Notes under the pieces: generated by a model
What the model was told of the DNA's origin: nothing
Database searches by the model: none
What the model saw: the letters and a program-made list of their open reading frames with translations, nothing else
In this document: positions 5,482 to 13,863 of the stretch, piece after piece
Position numbering within the stretch: the first letter of the stretch is position 1
Layout of the letters: every line of letters begins with the position of its first letter
From: Sneathiellales bacterium
GTDB taxonomy: Bacteria; Pseudomonadota; Alphaproteobacteria; JANQFL01
DNA length: 64,000 nucleotides
Direction: 5' to 3'
Assembly (NCBI GenBank): GCA_028277845.1
Contig: JANQFL010000074.1
Location: 40,758-104,757 of the forward strand
Made by a program: the position numbers and the translations under genes

Positions 5482-5554
5482 TCTCCAGAAATCGGTTCCC
5501 GGAACCTTGCCGCGCTATGTTGCCTACGGCGAAATGCGTGTAGATTATGCCCTC

Positions 5555-6949
5555 ATGGAGGGCACGAACGGAAACCTGTTTCCCCTGCGCCGAAGCTTGT
5601 CGACGCGACTGTTGGTCTTGACGGTCGCGTTTGTCATGTTGAGCGAGGTACTCATCTATGTGCCGTCCATTGCGCGCTTTCGGCAGTCCTATCTCGACGA
5701 ACGCCTGGCCCAGGCCCACCTAGCGACACTGGCCATGCTGGCGGCGCCCAACAACGAGGTCAACGACGAGCTGGAGCGGGAGATGCTGTTCCGGGTGGGG
5801 GCGCGGGCGATCATTCTGAAACGGCCGGCCAGCCGCTTCCTCATGCTCAGCGACGACATGCCGGCCCGGATCGACGTGACGTTCGACATGCGCGATCCCA
5901 TGCCCATGGAATTGCTCATGCACACGTTCGATGCGCTGGTTCAGCCCGACGACCGTTTGATGCGTATCATCGGCGAGGTTTCCGGCGCGACGTCGACGAC
6001 GGTGGAAGTCATCTTGCCCGAAGCGCCGTTGCGTGAAGCCATGTTCGACTTCTCGTGGCGTATCCTGACCTTGTCGATCATCATCTCCCTGTTTACCGCC
6101 GGGCTGGTGTATCTCAGCCTGTCGTGGCTGATGGTCCGGCCCATGGCCCGGCTGACGGAAAGCATGATGCGTTTCCGTCAGCGTCCGGAAGACGCCTCGC
6201 GCATCGTACAACCCTCCGATCGCCAGGACGAAATCGGCCAGGCCCAACGGGAACTGGCGGTCATGCAGAGCGCGCTGCGTGATTCACTCCGGCAGAAGAC
6301 GCATCTGGCGGCACTCGGTACGGCGGTTTCCAAGATCAACCACGACCTGCGCAATATTCTGGCGGTGGCGCAACTGGTGTCGGACCGGTTCGTCGATAGC
6401 GCCGACCCCGAGGTGCGCCGGATTACGCCCAGGCTGTTGTCGAGCATCGACCGGGCCACCAGCCTGTGCGCCCGGACCTTGAAGTTCGGCCGGGCCGACG
6501 AGCCGGCGCCGGAAAAGACCCGTTTCGCATTGCGGCCGTTGATCGACGAGGTCGCGCTTGCCGTCGGCGGTACCGGCGACGACCATACGACCTGGACGAA
6601 CGACATCGCGGACGATGTCGAGGTCTTTGCCGATCACGACCAGCTCTTCCGGGTGTTCCTCAACCTGGGTCGCAATGCCGTGCAGGCCGCCGGTCCGGAG
6701 GTTCTCATCCGGGTGGTCTGCGAACCGTGCGAGGAGGGACTGGCTATTGACGTCATCGACAATGGTCCCGGCCTGCCGGAAGCCGCCAAACAGCATCTCT
6801 TCGAACCCTTCACCGGCAGCGCGCGGGCGGGCGGGACCGGGCTCGGACTGGTGATCGTCAAGGATTTGATCTCGGCCCACGGCGGAACCGTGGACGTCCG
6901 CTCCACCGGCCCCGAAGGCACTGTTTTCCGCGTGATTTTGCCCGCATAG
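5555..6949 (+). CDS. HAMP-domain sensor histidine kinase
   Basis: 2 TM, HAMP, H-box KINHDLRN, N-box NLGRNA, DNGPG, GGTGLGL; start uncertain (5507-5555). Confidence 0.9.
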   Translation: MEGTNGNLFPLRRSLSTRLLVLTVAFVMLSEVLIYVPSIARFRQSYLDERLAQAHLATLAMLAAPNNEVNDELEREMLFRVGARAIILKRPASRFLMLSDDMPARIDVTFDMRDPMPMELLMHTFDALVQPDDRLMRIIGEVSGATSTTVEVILPEAPLREAMFDFSWRILTLSIIISLFTAGLVYLSLSWLMVRPMARLTESMMRFRQRPEDASRIVQPSDRQDEIGQAQRELAVMQSALRDSLRQKTHLAALGTAVSKINHDLRNILAVAQLVSDRFVDSADPEVRRITPRLLSSIDRATSLCARTLKFGRADEPAPEKTRFALRPLIDEVALAVGGTGDDHTTWTNDIADDVEVFADHDQLFRVFLNLGRNAVQAAGPEVLIRVVCEPCEEGLAIDVIDNGPGLPEAAKQHLFEPFTGSARAGGTGLGLVIVKDLISAHGGTVDVRSTGPEGTVFRVILPA

Positions 6950-9156: not shown

Positions 9157-9882
9157 TTGATCGTGCTTTTTACCGATTTCGGCTGGAACGGGCCTTATGT
9201 CGGTCAAATGAAGGCCGCCATTGTCAAGCGTGCGCCCGAGGTTCCGGTCATCGACCTGTTGCACGATGCGCCCGCTTTCGACCCCAAGGCGTCGGCTTAT
9301 CTGTTGCCGGCCTATGCCGCATGTTTCCCCAAAGGGAGTGTTTTCTTGTGCGTCGTCGATCCCGGTGTCGGCGGCACGCGCGATCCGTTGATCGTTCGGG
9401 CGGACGGACGGTGGTTCGTCGGGCCGGGCAATGGATTGTTTGAAATCGTGCGGCGACGGGCCGCACCGTCCAGGCAGTGGATCATCGAGTGGCGGCCCGA
9501 GCACCTGTCGGCCAGTTTTCATGGCCGCGATCTGTTTGCGCCCGTTGCGGCCGGCTTGGCCCGTGGAGTCATGCCGGCGGCCCGGATTTTGACCGCCGAT
9601 GAACAACGTCACCACGACTGGCCCGATGATCTTGCGGAAGTGACGTACGTCGACCATTACGGAAATGCCGTGACCGGTACGCGGGCGTCCCGGATCGGCA
9701 CCGACAGTTCGGTGACGATCAACGGGCAAACCATCGATCATGCCCGGACGTTCGGCGACAAGGAGCCCGGCCAGGCTTTCTGGTACGCCAACGCCAACGG
9801 TTTGTTGGAAATTTCCGTCAACCAGGGCCGCGCGGTCGATGTTTTGGGTGCCGCCGTGGGCACGCCTATCCTGTTTTGTTAA
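9157..9882 (+). CDS. SAM hydroxide adenosyltransferase/chlorinase-fluorinase family (DUF62)
   Basis: LFTDFG..GPYVGQMK, VVDPGVG, SFHGRDLFAP, VDHYGN. Confidence 0.9.
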   Translation: MIVLFTDFGWNGPYVGQMKAAIVKRAPEVPVIDLLHDAPAFDPKASAYLLPAYAACFPKGSVFLCVVDPGVGGTRDPLIVRADGRWFVGPGNGLFEIVRRRAAPSRQWIIEWRPEHLSASFHGRDLFAPVAAGLARGVMPAARILTADEQRHHDWPDDLAEVTYVDHYGNAVTGTRASRIGTDSSVTINGQTIDHARTFGDKEPGQAFWYANANGLLEISVNQGRAVDVLGAAVGTPILFC

Positions 9883-10080
9883 CTTTTTGTGCGCGTTATC
9901 AGGGAAATTTGGGCGAAATCGAGCCCGATTGAACGCGTGTTCAAAATTGAAACGCAAAGTGATCGGACATTTTTCCGTCACAGGGAATATTGTCTAAGGC
10001 GCTGAAAAGTAAGAAAAAGCGTATTTCCGACGACTCGGAATTTGAACGATCTCACCAACAAAGGTTAAAGAGCGGCCGAT

Positions 10081-10112
10081 CCATTTAGGGCTTGTTAACC
10101 CTAAATGGTTAA
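10081..10112. promoter_or_regulatory. 10-bp inverted repeat overlapping CtrA-like sites
   Basis: CCATTTAGGG-N8-CCCTAAATGG (10081-10108); TTTA-N7-TTAAC at 10084-10099; TTAACCAT on the minus strand at 10105-10112. Confidence 0.55.
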
Positions 10113-10201
10113 CGTTGGCGTATGAGCGCGGGCAACAATCCCGCTGGGGCAGTTTCGGGGAACCAGGACTGGAGGGGAGGAGAGAGAGCCAAAGGAGCGT
10201 A

Positions 10202-10984
10202 ATGATGGCTGTAAAAATGGTTGGGATGGCGTCCGAACAACTGGATGCCTTGAATCCCGCGAATGTTGTATCCGACGCCGAGGCGCGTGAAAACAATGTC
10301 CGCGTGCTTGGCGGTGTTCCCGGAGCGATGCTTGCGCGCATCAGGGACGGCGGCGCAACGCCCTACAGCTACTTACTCTGGCTTCGATTCTCCATGGTCA
10401 ACATGGCGGCTTTCGCCGTTGTCGGCGTCGCCTATATGCAAGGCTGGGTCGACATGGTCCTGGTCGCCGACAACACCGGTCTCAGCCTCGTTATTCTGGC
10501 GGCTTTCGTGATCGGCTTGGCTCTTGCCGCGCACAAGACCCTGCAAACCAGCCGCGAATTGAACTGCGCCCGCGAATTCGATCCGCCGCGCTGGAGCCGC
10601 GCGGCCCGCTATCTGGAAGCGACCTCCGGCCGGAACGCCGACAGCCGCGCCATGGTGGCGTCCGCGCTGAAACTGAAACTCGCAACCCGGATTTCGATCG
10701 TCAAGCACATCGGCAACAGCCTGGTAGTGCTCGGCCTGATCGGTACGGTTATCGGCTTTATCATCGCACTGTCCGGTGTCGACCCCGATACCGTCGGCGA
10801 CGTCAAGGCCGTCGGTCCGATGGTGTCGACCTTGATTCAAGGTATGTCGGTGGCCCTGTACACCACTCTTGTCGGCGCCGTGCTGAACATCTGGCTGATG
10901 ATCAACTACCAATTGCTGGCCGGCGGAACCGCCAATCTGATCGCCACGATCGTGGAATCCGGTGAGAGCCATGCCGGAGCCTGA
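10202..10984 (+). CDS. MotA/TolQ/ExbB proton-channel family protein
   Basis: AAGGAG RBS; LGLIGTVIG and GMSVALYTTLVG helices. Confidence 0.85.
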   Translation: MMAVKMVGMASEQLDALNPANVVSDAEARENNVRVLGGVPGAMLARIRDGGATPYSYLLWLRFSMVNMAAFAVVGVAYMQGWVDMVLVADNTGLSLVILAAFVIGLALAAHKTLQTSRELNCAREFDPPRWSRAARYLEATSGRNADSRAMVASALKLKLATRISIVKHIGNSLVVLGLIGTVIGFIIALSGVDPDTVGDVKAVGPMVSTLIQGMSVALYTTLVGAVLNIWLMINYQLLAGGTANLIATIVESGESHAGA

Positions 10985-11582
10985 TCTGTTCAGCGACGAA
11001 GACGACGGTGGCGCCACCGTTTTTCGCGATGTCATCATGTTGGCCCTGGCCGGGTTCGTGGCCATTGTCATCCTGCTGCTGCCGCATCTGAACCCGAAGG
11101 CCAAGGCGTCGAAGAGCGACGCCAATCCGCCGGGCAACGTCATCGTCGAGATGCGCTGGCCCGACGATATGGACACGGATGTGGATTTGTGGGTGGAAGC
11201 CCCCGGCGATAAGCCGGTTGGCTACTCCAACAAGGGCGGCCAGTTTTTCAATCTGCTGCGCGACGATCTCGGCCGTCTCGGCGACGCCACGGAAATGAAC
11301 TACGAAGTGTCGTACAGCCGCGGCATTCCGACCGGCGAGTACACGGTAAACGCCCACCTGTACCGTAATCTGGCGGGAACGTTCCCGGTTCCGGTTACGC
11401 TGGTGATCAGCGTCAAGCGCGATATCAGCGAATCGGCGCAACAGGTTCTGACGACCCGACTCAACCTGACCCACGAAGGCCAGGAACTGACAGCCTTCCG
11501 TTTCCGTCTCGACGAGCTGGCGCAAGTGGTGTCCGGCAGTGTGCACAATGTTCAACGCCCCTTGAGGGCAGCGGAGCGGTAA
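10971..11582 (+). CDS. Single-TM ExbD/MotB-position subunit with atypical periplasmic domain (DxDLWV)
   Basis: Overlaps upstream gene by 14 nt; Asp at start of TM (FRDVIMLALAGF); WPDDMDTDVDLWV...GEYTVNAHLY domain. Confidence 0.7.
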   Translation: MPEPDLFSDEDDGGATVFRDVIMLALAGFVAIVILLLPHLNPKAKASKSDANPPGNVIVEMRWPDDMDTDVDLWVEAPGDKPVGYSNKGGQFFNLLRDDLGRLGDATEMNYEVSYSRGIPTGEYTVNAHLYRNLAGTFPVPVTLVISVKRDISESAQQVLTTRLNLTHEGQELTAFRFRLDELAQVVSGSVHNVQRPLRAAER

Positions 11583-11587
11583 TCGAT

Positions 11588-12097
11588 ATGTCGCAATTGT
11601 CAGCCTTGTTTTTTGTCGCTCTCGCCCTGGTGACCGGATTGGGACTGATTGCCGTCTGGTCGCGGCGCAAGCTGGTTATCCGCTTTGGCGCTGTGGCGTT
11701 GACCGCGGCCTTCATCCCGCTGTCCTATGCGGCATTTTCGGAGCTCCTGAGCAAACCCAAGCCGGTGTCGCTCGAGTGGGCGAACCGCAACGCCGAGGAA
11801 GCCACCGTTCTGGCATCCCAGATGCAGGAGAATGTGGCGATATACATTTGGCTGGCTTTGCCCGAAGCGACGGAACCGCGGGCCTATGTGCTGCCGTGGG
11901 ATCGCCGGACCGCGCAGCAATTGCAAGGCGCCAACCGACAAGCGGAAAAGACCAAGTCGAAGGTGCGTATGCGCCGGCCGTTCCAAGTATCGATCGATAC
12001 CCGCGATGAACTGTTCTATGCAACACCGCAACGGTCCGGCCCGGAAAAGACACCGGGCAACGGCAACGCCATGGTTTACAACCGGTCCAATCAGTGA
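11588..12097 (+). CDS. Hypothetical membrane protein (2 N-terminal TM)
   Basis: 5 nt after previous gene; two hydrophobic helices, then SKPKP, AIYIWL, EPRAYVLPW. Confidence 0.7.
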   Translation: MSQLSALFFVALALVTGLGLIAVWSRRKLVIRFGAVALTAAFIPLSYAAFSELLSKPKPVSLEWANRNAEEATVLASQMQENVAIYIWLALPEATEPRAYVLPWDRRTAQQLQGANRQAEKTKSKVRMRRPFQVSIDTRDELFYATPQRSGPEKTPGNGNAMVYNRSNQ

Positions 12098-12123: not shown

Positions 12124-12855
12124 CTAAATGTGCGGTGTACCGGGGGTAAAGCTGTAGCCATCGCCGTGCACGGTCTTTATGAGGCGCGGCGGCTTGCCCT
12201 TTTCGCTTTCCAGTTTGTTGCGCAGACGGCCAATCAGAACGTCGATAGCCCGGCTCGGCGCATCCAGATCCTTCCCGTAGACCTCGCGATAAAGGATTTC
12301 CCGTGGGATCACCGTGTTGGGCGACTTGAGAAAGGCGCACAACAGTCGGAATTCCGTCGACGTGAGGGAGACCACCCGGCCGTCATCGGCCGTCAGATGG
12401 TGGCTGGGCATCGCCAGGGTCCACTCGGCAAAATGGTAGTTTCCCGCCGGCGGTTCCGATCCGGCTGCCGGCTCGGACTTGTGGGTTCGGCGCAGGACGC
12501 TGCGGATGCGAGCCAATAGCTCGCGGTTGGCGAACGGCTTGGCTACGTAGTCGTCGGCACCCATTTCGAGACCGACCACGAGATCCACGGTTTCGCCCTT
12601 GCCGGTCAGCATAATGATGCCGAGATCGTGCTTTTCACGGAGTTCCCGGGCCAGGGCCAGGCCGTCCTCGCCCGGAAGGACCAAATCAAGCAACACCAAA
12701 TCAACATGCCGCTCGTCGAGAACGGCACGCATTTGTGTGCCGTCGCCGGCTTCCGATACCTCGAAGCCCTCCCGGGTCAAATAGGTGTTGAGCATTTCCC
12801 TGAGGTCGGGGTCGTCGTCTACGACCAGAATGCCGTTTCTATCCTGCGACGTCAT
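12124..12855 (-). CDS. OmpR/PhoB-family response regulator
   Basis: ILVVDDD, LLDLVLPGEDG, GADDYVAKPF, winged-helix end IKTVHGDGY; start re-chosen at MTSQDR. Confidence 0.92.
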   Translation of the reverse strand: MTSQDRNGILVVDDDPDLREMLNTYLTREGFEVSEAGDGTQMRAVLDERHVDLVLLDLVLPGEDGLALARELREKHDLGIIMLTGKGETVDLVVGLEMGADDYVAKPFANRELLARIRSVLRRTHKSEPAAGSEPPAGNYHFAEWTLAMPSHHLTADDGRVVSLTSTEFRLLCAFLKSPNTVIPREILYREVYGKDLDAPSRAIDVLIGRLRNKLESEKGKPPRLIKTVHGDGYSFTPGTPHI

Positions 12856-13092
12856 AGCTTTCGGCGTCCAATTGCGTGCCGAAATCTTGAGAGTGCGCCA
12901 ATAGCGATAAGCATCAAAGTCACGGTCTTCGCGATCCCACTTTTTTGAATTTTCGCTCAATGCGGCAGCCCTGACAACCGCCTAGCGGCACTCTATGTAA
13001 CAAACCGGGCTCTATCCTTGGTCGTAGAGCCGTTCGAAGAGTTCGACTGCTGGTGTCGAATTTCTTGAGTGTATCTATAATAAAATGATAAT

Positions 13093-13279: not shown

Positions 13280-13585
13280 ATGGCGCAACTGGACCAGGAA
13301 GCACAGGATTCATGCCGTTGGGCCGCCGAAGTCGGTGACGCGGATGCGCAGTTCCATCTCGGATGTCTTTATGCCACGGGTCAGGGTGTGCCGCGGGATT
13401 TCGTGATCGCCCAGAAATGGCTCAATCTTGCTGCGGCAGCCGGTGTCAATGAGGCCAATTCGTATCGTGCCCGGCTCGCGCAGAACATGACGGCGACAGA
13501 AATCGCCGAAGCCGTGAGACTGGCGCGACGCTGGAAGTCGGGATGCGTCGTCGTCTCTGGAGGAGACACATGCTACGTAAACTGA
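13280..13585 (+). CDS. Short Sel1-repeat protein
   Basis: AAEVGDADAQFHLGCLYATGQGVPRDFVIAQKWLNLAA. Confidence 0.8.
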   Translation: MAQLDQEAQDSCRWAAEVGDADAQFHLGCLYATGQGVPRDFVIAQKWLNLAAAAGVNEANSYRARLAQNMTATEIAEAVRLARRWKSGCVVVSGGDTCYVN

Positions 13586-13863
13586 CCCTTGCCGCCGTGC
13601 TGGCCCTGTTCCCGTTCGCAGCGAACGCACAGTCCATGTGCACCGAACGTACCGATATTCTGAAAGCGCTTGGCACCAAGTACTCGGAGGCCCCCGTCGC
13701 CATGGGTTTGGCCGCGAACGGAACCGTGCTGGAAGTGCTCGCGTCCAAGGACGGAACCTGGACGATCATATTTACCCGGCCGAACGGCATGAGTTGTGTT
13801 CTTGCCGCCGGCCAGTCCTGGGAATCGATTGAGAAAACGGCGGCTTTGGGTCCCAAAGCTTAG
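13570..13863 (+). CDS. Small exported hypothetical protein (two Cys)
   Basis: AGGAG RBS; signal ANA-Q; C..R...L..KY.E, GTWTI..T.PNG.SC..AAG..W pattern. Confidence 0.75.
   Translation: MLRKLTLAAVLALFPFAANAQSMCTERTDILKALGTKYSEAPVAMGLAANGTVLEVLASKDGTWTIIFTRPNGMSCVLAAGQSWESIEKTAALGPKA

Follow-up and report, generated by a model that had tools for sequence, protein, structure and literature searches.

A conserved MotA/ExbB-family gene trio with a TerD-like partner subunit, shared by bacteria and phages and probably encoding a membrane machine

Three adjacent genes of a Sneathiellales bacterium (assembly GCA_028277845.1, contig JANQFL010000074.1) probably encode a single membrane machine of the MotA/ExbB superfamily of 5:2 rotary motors, with its output in the membrane or the periplasm. 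The genes are located at positions 10202-12097 of the window, which is the whole stretch of 64,000 nucleotides that was analysed. Their predicted architecture, with a MotA/ExbB channel, a single-transmembrane (TM) partner carrying an Asp and translational coupling, is consistent with a 5:2-type motor whose axle is unconventional. Ion-driven 5:2 motors are a small class of machines, including the flagellar stator and the Ton, Tol, gliding and Zorya systems, and each new branch has so far led to a new use of the membrane potential outside the cytoplasm. The trio would be a large branch, in which the axle and the third subunit have no described relatives. No description of the trio was found in the literature on MotA/TolQ/ExbB motors, including phage-encoded ones. 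Passages of PMC12505986, PMC12204202 and PMC10460002 do not mention it, and the supplements of these papers might list members of the family.

All three genes are located on the forward strand. Gene 1 (10202..10984, 260 aa) encodes the channel subunit and overlaps by 14 nt (10971-10984) with gene 2 (10971..11582, 203 aa, starting with the ATG at 10971), which encodes the axle-like single-TM partner. Gene 3 (11588..12097, 169 aa), encoding a TM hairpin and a small periplasmic domain, follows after a gap of 5 nt. A Shine-Dalgarno box (AAGGAG) is present 4-7 nt 5' of the twin ATG codons of gene 1. The preceding gene, encoding a SAM hydroxide adenosyltransferase, ends at 9882, and the promoter of the trio is presumed to be within the 319 nt intergenic region between them (9883..10201, + strand), where a scan for the sigma-70 consensus gave no + strand site. 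A hydropathy scan predicts four TM segments in gene 1, one in gene 2 and two in gene 3. The open reading frames (ORFs) scanned between 5.5 and 18.3 kb also encode a histidine kinase, a methyltransferase, a ParA-like ATPase, an OmpR-type response regulator, a Sel1 protein, a gamma-glutamyltranspeptidase, an S58 peptidase and a solute-binding protein; no TonB, TolA/B, Pal, flagellar or Zorya C/D/E gene and no TonB-dependent receptor gene is present among them. The initial annotation, which had described a tightly coupled operon with this overlap and gap, a MotA/TolQ/ExbB-family gene 1, a single-TM gene 2 with an Asp, a 2-TM gene 3 and the absence of such neighbors, is borne out on each of these points, and the motifs that it had named in gene 2 (FRDVI at the TM start, W..D.DVDLWV and GEY.VN.HLY) are all present. 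The neighborhood in the window is ordinary chromosome, neither a defence island nor a prophage. Canonical ExbB/TolQ-ExbD pairs are encoded elsewhere in the same genome, indicating that the trio is an extra system.

By sequence, gene 1 is a member of the MotA/ExbB family. It matches the Pfam model PF01618 (MotA_ExbB) over residues 156-249 with an E-value of 1.1e-10 and 41.7 bits, above the cut-off of 22.9, and is one of five members of PF01618 found in a six-frame search of the genome. The protein consists of a variable N-terminal cytoplasmic stretch and four predicted TM helices, with a cytoplasmic loop of approximately 55 residues between TM2 and TM3. All of the 30 homologs aligned have G181, T182 and T222, and at least 90% of them have T221. 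The GT pair in the penultimate TM helix and the TT pair in the last one align with GMIGT and ALITTL of solved MotA. Based on work on ExbB, TolQ and MotA, the GT/TT residues of the last two TM helices are taken here to line the ion path. When the gene 1 profile was compared with solved structures, MotA (8gqy_A) was the best match (E 1e-4), followed by a ZorA-like protein and PomA at an E-value of approximately 0.1.

Gene 1 resembles MotA and PomA in having four TM helices and MotA as its best solved match, and the partner helix carries an Asp as in MotB and PomB. However, gene 1 has a short loop where MotA has its torque-generating domain, phage copies lack even this loop, gene 2 has neither a plug nor an OmpA-like domain, and flagellar genes are not nearby. 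The ZorA-ZorB pair is similar in being a MotAB-like pair outside motility, and both systems are found on mobile DNA. The PADLOC ZorA models match gene 1 weakly (best E 1.2e-7) over only 50-80 residues of the channel core, the NCBIfam ZorA models score far under their cut-offs, and the TM helix of ZorB is the only B-subunit match of the gene 2 profile among solved structures, at an insignificant E-value of 0.95. In contrast to Zorya, gene 1 has no long ZorA tail, a ZorB peptidoglycan-binding domain is absent and no ZorC/D/E genes are present. The trio was therefore rejected as a Zorya system, as only the channel core matches ZorA, no PADLOC model matches gene 2 or gene 3, and there are no effector neighbors.

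Gene 2 has the traits of an axle subunit, i.e., a single TM helix, a conserved Asp near the cytoplasmic end of this helix and a position directly 3' of the channel gene. The N-terminal TM helix is followed by a linker of approximately 15 residues and a periplasmic beta-sandwich. The Asp (D20, in the FRD motif) is found in 124 of the 140 representatives and in 60 of the 67 viral copies. Among the proteins without D20, several have an Asp one turn away and five have FRG; the existence of a small clade with FRG(Y) instead of FRD (L103, L136, L144, P0237 and P0249) indicates that the Asp in the TM helix is not universal. The periplasmic domain has approximately 15 near-invariant residues, which are mostly acidic and clustered. 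W63, D70, D72, W74, D98, D99, G101, D105, N110 and E112 are each present in at least 135 of the 140 representatives and at least 64 of the 67 viral copies.

The initial annotation had staked its reading in advance on gene 2 not being a standard ExbD, TolR or MotB and had noted the lack of an OmpA-like motif, and the profile searches agree with both. The Pfam models ExbD, MotB, OmpA and MotB_plug gave no match at E<=1 in gene 2 or in 49 family members, and a genome-wide ExbD search at the same threshold found three other genes and not gene 2. Comparison of gene 2 with the ExbD proteins of this genome using hhalign resulted in a probability of 1.3%; the alignment places D20 opposite the TM Asp of these proteins, over 17 columns that carry no statistical weight. 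With the sequence of gene 2 alone, nothing was found among solved structures at E<=10, and with its profile the C-terminal jelly-roll of subtilisin (E 0.46) was found beside the ZorB helix, also without significance. Gene 2 was rejected as an ExbD/TolR protein on the missing profile match and the predicted beta-sandwich fold, and as a MotB-type peptidoglycan-binding stator subunit on the unmatched OmpA and MotB_plug profiles and the absence of an OmpA-like chain among the fold matches listed.

According to the AF2 model (mean pLDDT 92.4), the periplasmic domain of gene 2 folds as a TerD-like beta-sandwich. The best fold matches are the TerD structures 2qz7_B (Z 8.8) and 2kxt (Z 8.4), over 133-134 residues with an rmsd of 4.0, and the next match has a Z of 5.8, three units lower. 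In addition, the five best Foldseek matches are all TerD-type chains, with E-values from 5.5e-4 to 8.5e-3. Gene 2 also shares clusters of conserved acidic residues with TerD, TerE and TerZ. It is not a member of the TerD family, as the profile searches fail despite the shared fold. The Pfam TerD model (PF02342) matches one of 49 gene 2 family members (E 0.13) and nothing in the six-frame search of the source genome, and hhalign of gene 2 against six TerD proteins resulted in a probability of 1.3%. TerD proteins are soluble and cytoplasmic, whereas gene 2 is predicted to be membrane-anchored and to face the periplasm. A resemblance of this domain to YfaP/DUF2135 had also been proposed. The 48-position DUF2135 profile (PF09906) is the sole Pfam match of gene 2 at E<=1, with an E-value of 0.032 and 14.8 bits, below the cut-off of 22; it matches eight of 49 family members at this threshold, with a best E-value of 1.3e-4, and in a protein atlas DUF2135/PPC clusters are reached only at scores of 0.82-0.83. 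This resemblance appears real but weak, and a TerD-like beta-sandwich is the better description of the domain.

Gene 3 consists of a TM hairpin, a small periplasmic domain with the order beta1-beta2-beta3-helix-beta4-beta5 and a proline-rich C-terminal tail (FYA.PQP..PPK), with a periplasmic part of approximately 115 residues. It has no family in Pfam, NCBIfam, PADLOC or PHROG. In an alignment of 30 homologs, P57, K58, E81, W88, P97 and R98 are invariant. The KPKP sequence, which had been read as a linker, is present, but it is not a TonB-like proline-rich linker; it belongs to a P-K-(P) motif that is invariant and is located where TM2 ends on the periplasmic side. The AF2 model has a mean pLDDT of 80.4, and its fold matches are weak and of the OB type, the best being the C-terminal domain of eIF5A (Z 6.2 over 72 residues). 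From the strand order and these matches of Z<=6.2, the periplasmic domain can tentatively be called OB-like. The matches listed in a wide fold search with the whole of gene 3 are dominated by the TM hairpin. A complex prediction with two copies of gene 2 and one of gene 3, made with alignments and without controls, scored 0.03 against a mark of 0.32, which favors neither binding nor its absence.

The three genes co-occur almost without exception, as the initial annotation had anticipated. In 110 bacterial loci, gene 1 adjoins gene 2 in 110 and gene 3 does so in 106, and contig ends account for three of the four misses. Among the best 80 genome loci, gene 1 is upstream in 80 and gene 3 downstream in 78, with both misses at contig ends, and an even sample of the class gave 30 and 28 of 30 loci, respectively. 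The 14 nt overlap between genes 1 and 2 is kept in 52 of 78 related loci, and a 4 nt overlap between genes 2 and 3 is seen in 53 of 77. No conserved flanking genes were observed around the bacterial trios beyond close relatives. Because the three genes co-occur while their flanks vary, the trio is regarded as a self-contained unit. The family comprises 1533 clusters at 50% identity, and among the species genomes searched at least 564 carry the trio. Cultured carriers include Denitrobaculum tricleocarpae (locus L073), a Pelagibius sp. (L050) and Benzoatithermus flavus (L043). The distribution is patchy: of 400 other genomes in the class, 54 (approximately one in seven) have the trio. Gene 2 is 60-71% identical across classes.

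The trio is also found in phages. Ten cultured rhizobiophages carry it, among them phage 16-3 (p038/p040/p042), as do 67 IMG/VR contigs, and gene 1 is often a minimal 4-TM form. With HMMs built from the bacterial copies, gene 1 was found in 57 and gene 3 in 56 of the 67 viral loci, and the misses were on inspection mostly contig ends or divergent copies. In phage 16-3, p038 aligns with gene 1 with an hhalign probability of 94% and lacks the cytoplasmic loop, and p042 aligns with gene 3 with a probability of 97.4%. Both temperate and lytic phages are carriers, some of them with a stripped-down ring. In the viral loci, 150 of 373 neighboring ORFs were annotated, covering 21 of 50 dereplicated loci, and these are involved in replication and recombination, nucleotide metabolism and packaging, with an occasional endolysin. 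No consistent context of lysis, tail or defence genes was observed among these 150 ORFs. Cell-wall hydrolase genes (GH108, PHROG endolysin or SleB-like) are located within approximately 1 kb 3' of gene 3 in the loci L143, L112 and L127, and an endolysin-like gene is located approximately 2 kb 5' of gene 1 in L097.

In the proposed mechanism, a 5:2 assembly would have an ion-conducting outer ring of gene 1 subunits around a central axle of gene 2, with the TM Asp taking up a proton. The beta-sandwich of gene 2 would be positioned just above the membrane, where it replaces the ExbD/TolR or OmpA-like domain of other axles and probably binds calcium. Gene 3, held in the membrane by its helical hairpin, may be an accessory or transducer subunit, as suggested by synteny. 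A cytoplasmic domain is absent from the phage copies of gene 1, so the output, be it work or a signal, must be delivered in the membrane or periplasm and not to a cytoplasmic rotor or effector. Phages and bacterial chromosomes exchange the module as a cassette. Several points count against the motor reading: gene 2 does not significantly resemble any B subunit in sequence, its linker cannot reach the peptidoglycan unless unfolded, the FRG(Y) clade departs from the FRD motif and the fold match of gene 3 is weak. A role at the cell envelope is considered most likely, either in encounters between phages and hosts, such as superinfection exclusion, or in envelope upkeep. The conservation of gene 2 across classes is unusually high for a conflict gene. 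A role in phage-host conflict would add a mechanism at the level of the envelope, and a housekeeping role would point to an unknown energised periplasmic process in many Alpha- and Gammaproteobacteria. Phage 16-3, with its genes p038-p042, is a cultured and genetically tractable carrier, which makes direct testing of the function possible.

The alternative that survives best, although it is unlikely, is that the trio is a gated ion leak and generates no force. Genes 2 and 3 would then use their periplasmic domains to sense a cue, such as calcium, a glycan or incoming phage material, and unplug the gene 1 channel, with depolarisation of the membrane as the output. A superinfecting phage could thereby be blocked, infection aborted or, in phages, the timing of lysis influenced. 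Unplugged MotAB stators are known to leak protons and arrest growth, and the beta-sandwich of gene 2, on its short linker over the channel, is in a plug-like position. The missing effector gene, the phage copies of gene 1 without a cytoplasmic domain and the hydrolase genes near the trio in the four loci mentioned above are also consistent with a leak. However, this proximity to endolysin genes is exceptional, as most of the 21 annotated viral loci have replication, recombination and packaging genes, and the chromosomal copies, being inherited stably and strongly conserved, fit a housekeeping task better than a suicide switch.

Somewhat less probable still is a minimal device exchanged between phages and bacteria, in which a MotA-like ring with a minimum of approximately 130 residues per subunit would be under periplasmic control by a calcium-binding sandwich axle and an OB-like co-sensor. 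Without a cytoplasmic partner, it would use or collapse the membrane potential in a controlled way when a phage enters or leaves the cell. Such a device would represent a new form of superinfection exclusion or lysis timing at the envelope, and no smaller 5:2 motor would be known.

A divergent Ton/Tol-type energiser is rather improbable. Gene 3 would in this case be a functional analog of TonB or TolA that delivers energy from genes 1 and 2 to a target in the outer membrane or cell wall, encoded away from the trio, and so serves uptake or keeps the outer membrane intact. The gene order does mirror exbB-exbD-tonB and tolQ-tolR-tolA, with a channel, an Asp-helix partner and a third, membrane-anchored periplasmic protein. 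The small cytoplasmic domain of the channel subunit and a presumably periplasmic output are further shared features, and gene 3 has a proline-rich C-terminal tail. ExbB and TolQ have three TM helices, whereas gene 1 has four predicted ones, and gene 2 carries the TerD-like sandwich in place of an ExbD/TolR periplasmic domain. Gene 3 was rejected as a TonB or TolA protein, as it has two TM helices and not one, its short periplasmic part contains no long proline-rich or helical spacer spanning the periplasm, and it has no Pfam TonB/TolA match, its weak fold matches being OB-type barrels and not the TonB C-terminal domain. In addition, receptor, Pal and TolB genes are not linked to the trio, which is also carried by phages that need no outer-membrane transport. 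In favor of this reading, new transducer families paired with TolQR-like motors have recently been reported (PMC12204202).

The patchy distribution and the presence in phages could also be expected of ORFs that arose by chance or of what is left of a prophage cassette in decay, but such a non-functional origin is very improbable in view of three open frames with near-invariant residues that are conserved across the 1533 clusters, the conserved translational coupling and the absence of phage genes flanking the trio in the window. That all three genes have large families of homologs in the same order indicates that they are not chance ORFs. Six singleton proteins of 372-447 aa that appear to be fusions consist of gene 2 and gene 3 parts with out-of-frame stretches between them or of gene 1-gene 2 joins, and were set aside as frameshift or gene-calling artefacts.

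The three genes lie co-directionally on the forward strand, as established from the ORF listing and by direct reading: gene 1 at 10202-10984 (260 aa), gene 2 at 10971-11582 (203 aa) and gene 3 at 11588-12097 (169 aa). An intergenic region of 319 nt precedes gene 1, with an AAGGAG box immediately 5' of its twin ATG codons. Genes 1 and 2 overlap by 14 nt, 5 nt separate genes 2 and 3, and a convergent response-regulator gene lies 3' of gene 3. A hydropathy scan gives four, one and two transmembrane (TM) segments for genes 1, 2 and 3, respectively. Every sequence motif cited in the initial annotation is present upon direct reading. The trio comprises a subunit of the MotA/ExbB family, a single-TM partner that is translationally coupled to it and bears a conserved Asp, and a third conserved membrane protein. 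A literature search returned no description of this trio in print, and in the protein atlas genes 2 and 3 fall only into 'hypothetical protein' clusters.

The assignment of gene 1 to the MotA/TolQ/ExbB channel family, made from the sequence alone, holds: the protein matches Pfam MotA_ExbB (PF01618) with an E-value of 1.1e-10 and 41.7 bits, above the cut-off of 22.9. In NCBIfam and PADLOC, matches to PomA, ZorA, ExbB and TolQ are all sub-threshold and all located on the last two TM helices. Among solved structures, the gene 1 profile finds the MotA 8gqy_A (E 1e-4), and a ZorA-like protein and PomA at E about 0.1. Residues G181, T182 and T222 are invariant in 30 homologues. The source genome carries four further PF01618 genes, two of which adjoin its three canonical ExbD/TolR genes; because these canonical ExbD/TolR genes and the other PF01618 genes sit elsewhere in the genome, the trio is an additional system.

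Gene 2 reaches the cut-off of no Pfam family. It had been described as neither ExbD-like nor OmpA-like, and this is borne out: ExbD, MotB, OmpA and TonB are absent from the Pfam families reported for 49 diverse members of the gene 2 family, and gene 2 is not recovered when the whole genome is searched for ExbD at E<=1. Alignment to the ExbD proteins of the source genome with hhalign gives a probability of 1.3% over 17 columns, in which D20, the Asp of the TM helix, is opposite the ExbD Asp. The proposed likeness to DUF2135 is weak: 8 of the 49 members match this family at E<=1 (best 1.3e-4), and the window protein itself stays below the cut-off (E 0.032). TerD is matched by one of the 49 (E 0.13), and the source genome contains no TerD matches; of the six genomes that do, one (G039, unpublished) entered no alignment and bears on no conclusion. 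Membership of the TerD family by sequence was considered and is ruled out by an hhalign probability of 1.3%.

A confident AlphaFold2 model of gene 2 (pLDDT 92.4), built from a 49-row alignment, predicts a single helix (residues 13-40) joined by a short linker to an eight-stranded beta-sandwich. In both fold searches TerD proteins rank first, with E 5.5e-4 to 8.5e-3 in Foldseek and Z-scores of 8.8 and 8.4 over 133-134 residues in VIA, where the next match scores 5.8. Lower-ranked matches include other calcium-binding sandwiches and protease C-terminal jelly-rolls. Conservation was counted in 140 full-length representatives and 67 viral copies. D20 is present in 124 of the former and 60 of the latter; for each of W63, D70, D72, W74, D98, D99, G101, D105, N110, E112, G122, N127 and T174, the count is at least 131 representatives and at least 61 viral copies. 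R97 is found in all 140 representatives and in 57 of the 67 viral copies, with Lys in six of the other ten. Gene 2 thus carries, on the periplasmic side, a TerD-like sandwich whose acidic cluster is invariant; on such a fold, this cluster is probably a calcium site. In a small clade (L103, L136, L144; P0237 and P0249), FRG(Y) replaces the FRD motif, so this clade has no TM Asp at the aligned position. The 2820-aa protein P0124 contains 24 stretches matching gene 2 residues ~110-168; in this giant protein, part of the sandwich is thus repeated in tandem.

No family in Pfam, NCBIfam, PADLOC or PHROGs matches gene 3, and nearly all of the 368 relatives found in a word-indexed search are unnamed or 'hypothetical protein' at source. 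In 30 homologues, TM2 ends in an invariant P-K(-P), and all 30 also have an EPRAYVLPW-type block and a proline-rich tail. The AlphaFold2 model (pLDDT 80.4) is a helical hairpin followed by beta1-beta2-beta3-helix-beta4-beta5. A wide fold search matched mostly the hairpin, and Foldseek with re-alignment gave weak OB-type matches at most: the eIF5A C-terminal domain is best (Z 6.2 over 72 residues), and toxin B subunits, TOBE domains and tRNA-synthetase anticodon domains score near 4. Because these matches are weak, the periplasmic domain is only tentatively labelled OB-like.

The co-occurrence of the three genes is confirmed in bacteria. The gene 2 family comprises 5683 clusters at 90% identity among 5973 candidates scored, and 1533 clusters at 50% identity with E<=1e-3. 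In a collection with one genome per species, at least 564 gene 2 loci are present; in the best 80 of these, gene 1 is directly upstream in 80 and gene 3 downstream in 78, the contig stopping after gene 2 in the two misses (L029, L077). With start codons picked by a heuristic, genes 1 and 2 overlap by 14 nt in 52 of 78 loci and by 8 nt in 20, and genes 2 and 3 by 4 nt in 53 of 77. Even sampling of the Alphaproteobacteria, source genome included, shows gene 2 in 55 of 401 genomes (47 of 337 of high quality), with a distribution that is patchy between families and consistent inside several. Among the 30 loci returned from this sample, gene 1 is adjacent in all; gene 3 is adjacent in 28, cut off by a contig end in one of the other two and not found in the second. 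One bacterial locus (L167, 81-2127) has the order 1-3-2. Outside close relatives, none of the flanking genes is conserved.

The trio is also found in phages. Ten cultured rhizobiophage records contain gene 2 at 27-45.5% identity (tblastn). In phage 16-3, p040 corresponds to gene 2, p038 to gene 1 (profile match at an hhalign probability of 94%) but without the cytoplasmic loop, and p042 to gene 3 (97.4%), with two small ORFs interleaved; phage versions of gene 1 lack the cytoplasmic domain. In the 171-kb phage RHph_I1_18, the ORF upstream of the gene 2 homologue passes PF01618 with 26.8 bits. Co-occurrence extends to IMG/VR: of its 67 gene 2 loci, 57 have gene 1 and 56 gene 3 by HMMs from bacterial copies. 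Ten miss loci were inspected, with upstream sequence visible in part of them: L127, L134, L142 and L143 have a divergent 130-160-aa 4-TM protein upstream, and in L117, L120 and L152 gene 3 is relocated or divergent. Contig ends cut off L129, L131, L136, L141, L144 and L154.

BLAST clustering of 50 dereplicated viral loci gives the trio as the only recurrent genes (40, 39 and 32 loci); the next clusters, in at most 7 loci, include a Trypsin_2 protease (6 loci), portal protein and terminase. PHROG annotation of 150 of the 373 neighbouring ORFs, from 21 loci, finds the trio amid genes for replication, recombination, nucleotide metabolism or packaging, and often beside HNH endonucleases; an endolysin adjoins it in one locus, and a second locus has another endolysin ~2 kb upstream of gene 1. 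Since the trio alone recurs in varied phage settings, the cassette behaves like a mobile accessory module.

Genes 1 and 2 would assemble as a ring-and-axle complex of the 5:2 type, powered by ion flow, with gene 3 as a partner of this complex; the output would be delivered in the membrane or periplasm, and calcium may act as a modulator. For the role, we lean towards an envelope function tied to phage-host encounters. For bacteria, however, a task closer to housekeeping is favoured by the strong conservation of gene 2 (60-71% identity across classes) and by its plain chromosomal setting in the window: by Pfam annotation, the ORFs at 5.5-18.3 kb are ordinary chromosomal genes, encoding a histidine kinase, methyltransferase, ParA-like ATPase, SAM hydroxide adenosyltransferase, OmpR-type regulator, Sel1 protein, gamma-glutamyltranspeptidase, S58 peptidase and solute-binding protein. 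A gated depolarising channel is an unlikely reading of the trio. Less probable still is a Ton/Tol-like energiser with gene 3 as the transducer; Pfam finds no TonB, Tol, Pal, flagellar, Zorya or phage genes at 5.5-18.3 kb, in agreement with the absence of such neighbours (phage genes aside) claimed initially. Chance ORFs are rejected.

Several further observations concern the surroundings of the trio. In the window, a HAMP histidine kinase (5507-6949, +) and the OmpR-type response regulator (12124-12960, -) flank the trio with other genes intervening, and neither is conserved next to it in other genomes. A periplasmic trypsin-like serine protease (PF13365) adjoins the trio in 6 of the 50 dereplicated viral loci and in phage 16-3, for example in L006 (2268-3167, phage 16-3 p036), L139 (3794-4498), L117 (4470-5600) and L120 (4609-5250); in the phage contig of L117 (4129-6567) it is located between the relocated gene 3 and gene 1, giving the order 3-protease-1-2. 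In L091 (538-4008), the trio and its small upstream gene look as if they had been inserted into a gene for the large terminase subunit: of the two ORFs on either side, one matches the N-terminal half of this subunit and the other the C-terminal half. Genes for HNH homing endonucleases are found beside the trio in L090, L094, L099, L104 and L102; the one in L102 (6606-7103) separates gene 2 from gene 3.

The ORF at 13543-13863 (+), 1.45 kb downstream of the trio, encodes a secreted protein of 106 aa that has two conserved Cys, belongs to no Pfam family and has four paralogues in the source genome. Its homologues (phrog_25396) immediately precede gene 1 in 10 of 67 viral loci and occur in none of 80 bacterial loci (+-3.5 kb) or 30 alphaproteobacterial loci (+-1.5 kb); it may be an occasional fourth component. 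Two complete trio copies (L015 and L023) lie ~7 kb apart on one metagenome-assembled alphaproteobacterial contig. Gene 2 homologues of the class form two score groups, at E about 1e-70 to 1e-85 and about 1e-30 to 1e-37, the weaker being mostly from small genomes (1.4-2.5 Mb); in the three loci of this group examined (L185-L187), genes 1 and 3 are retained.
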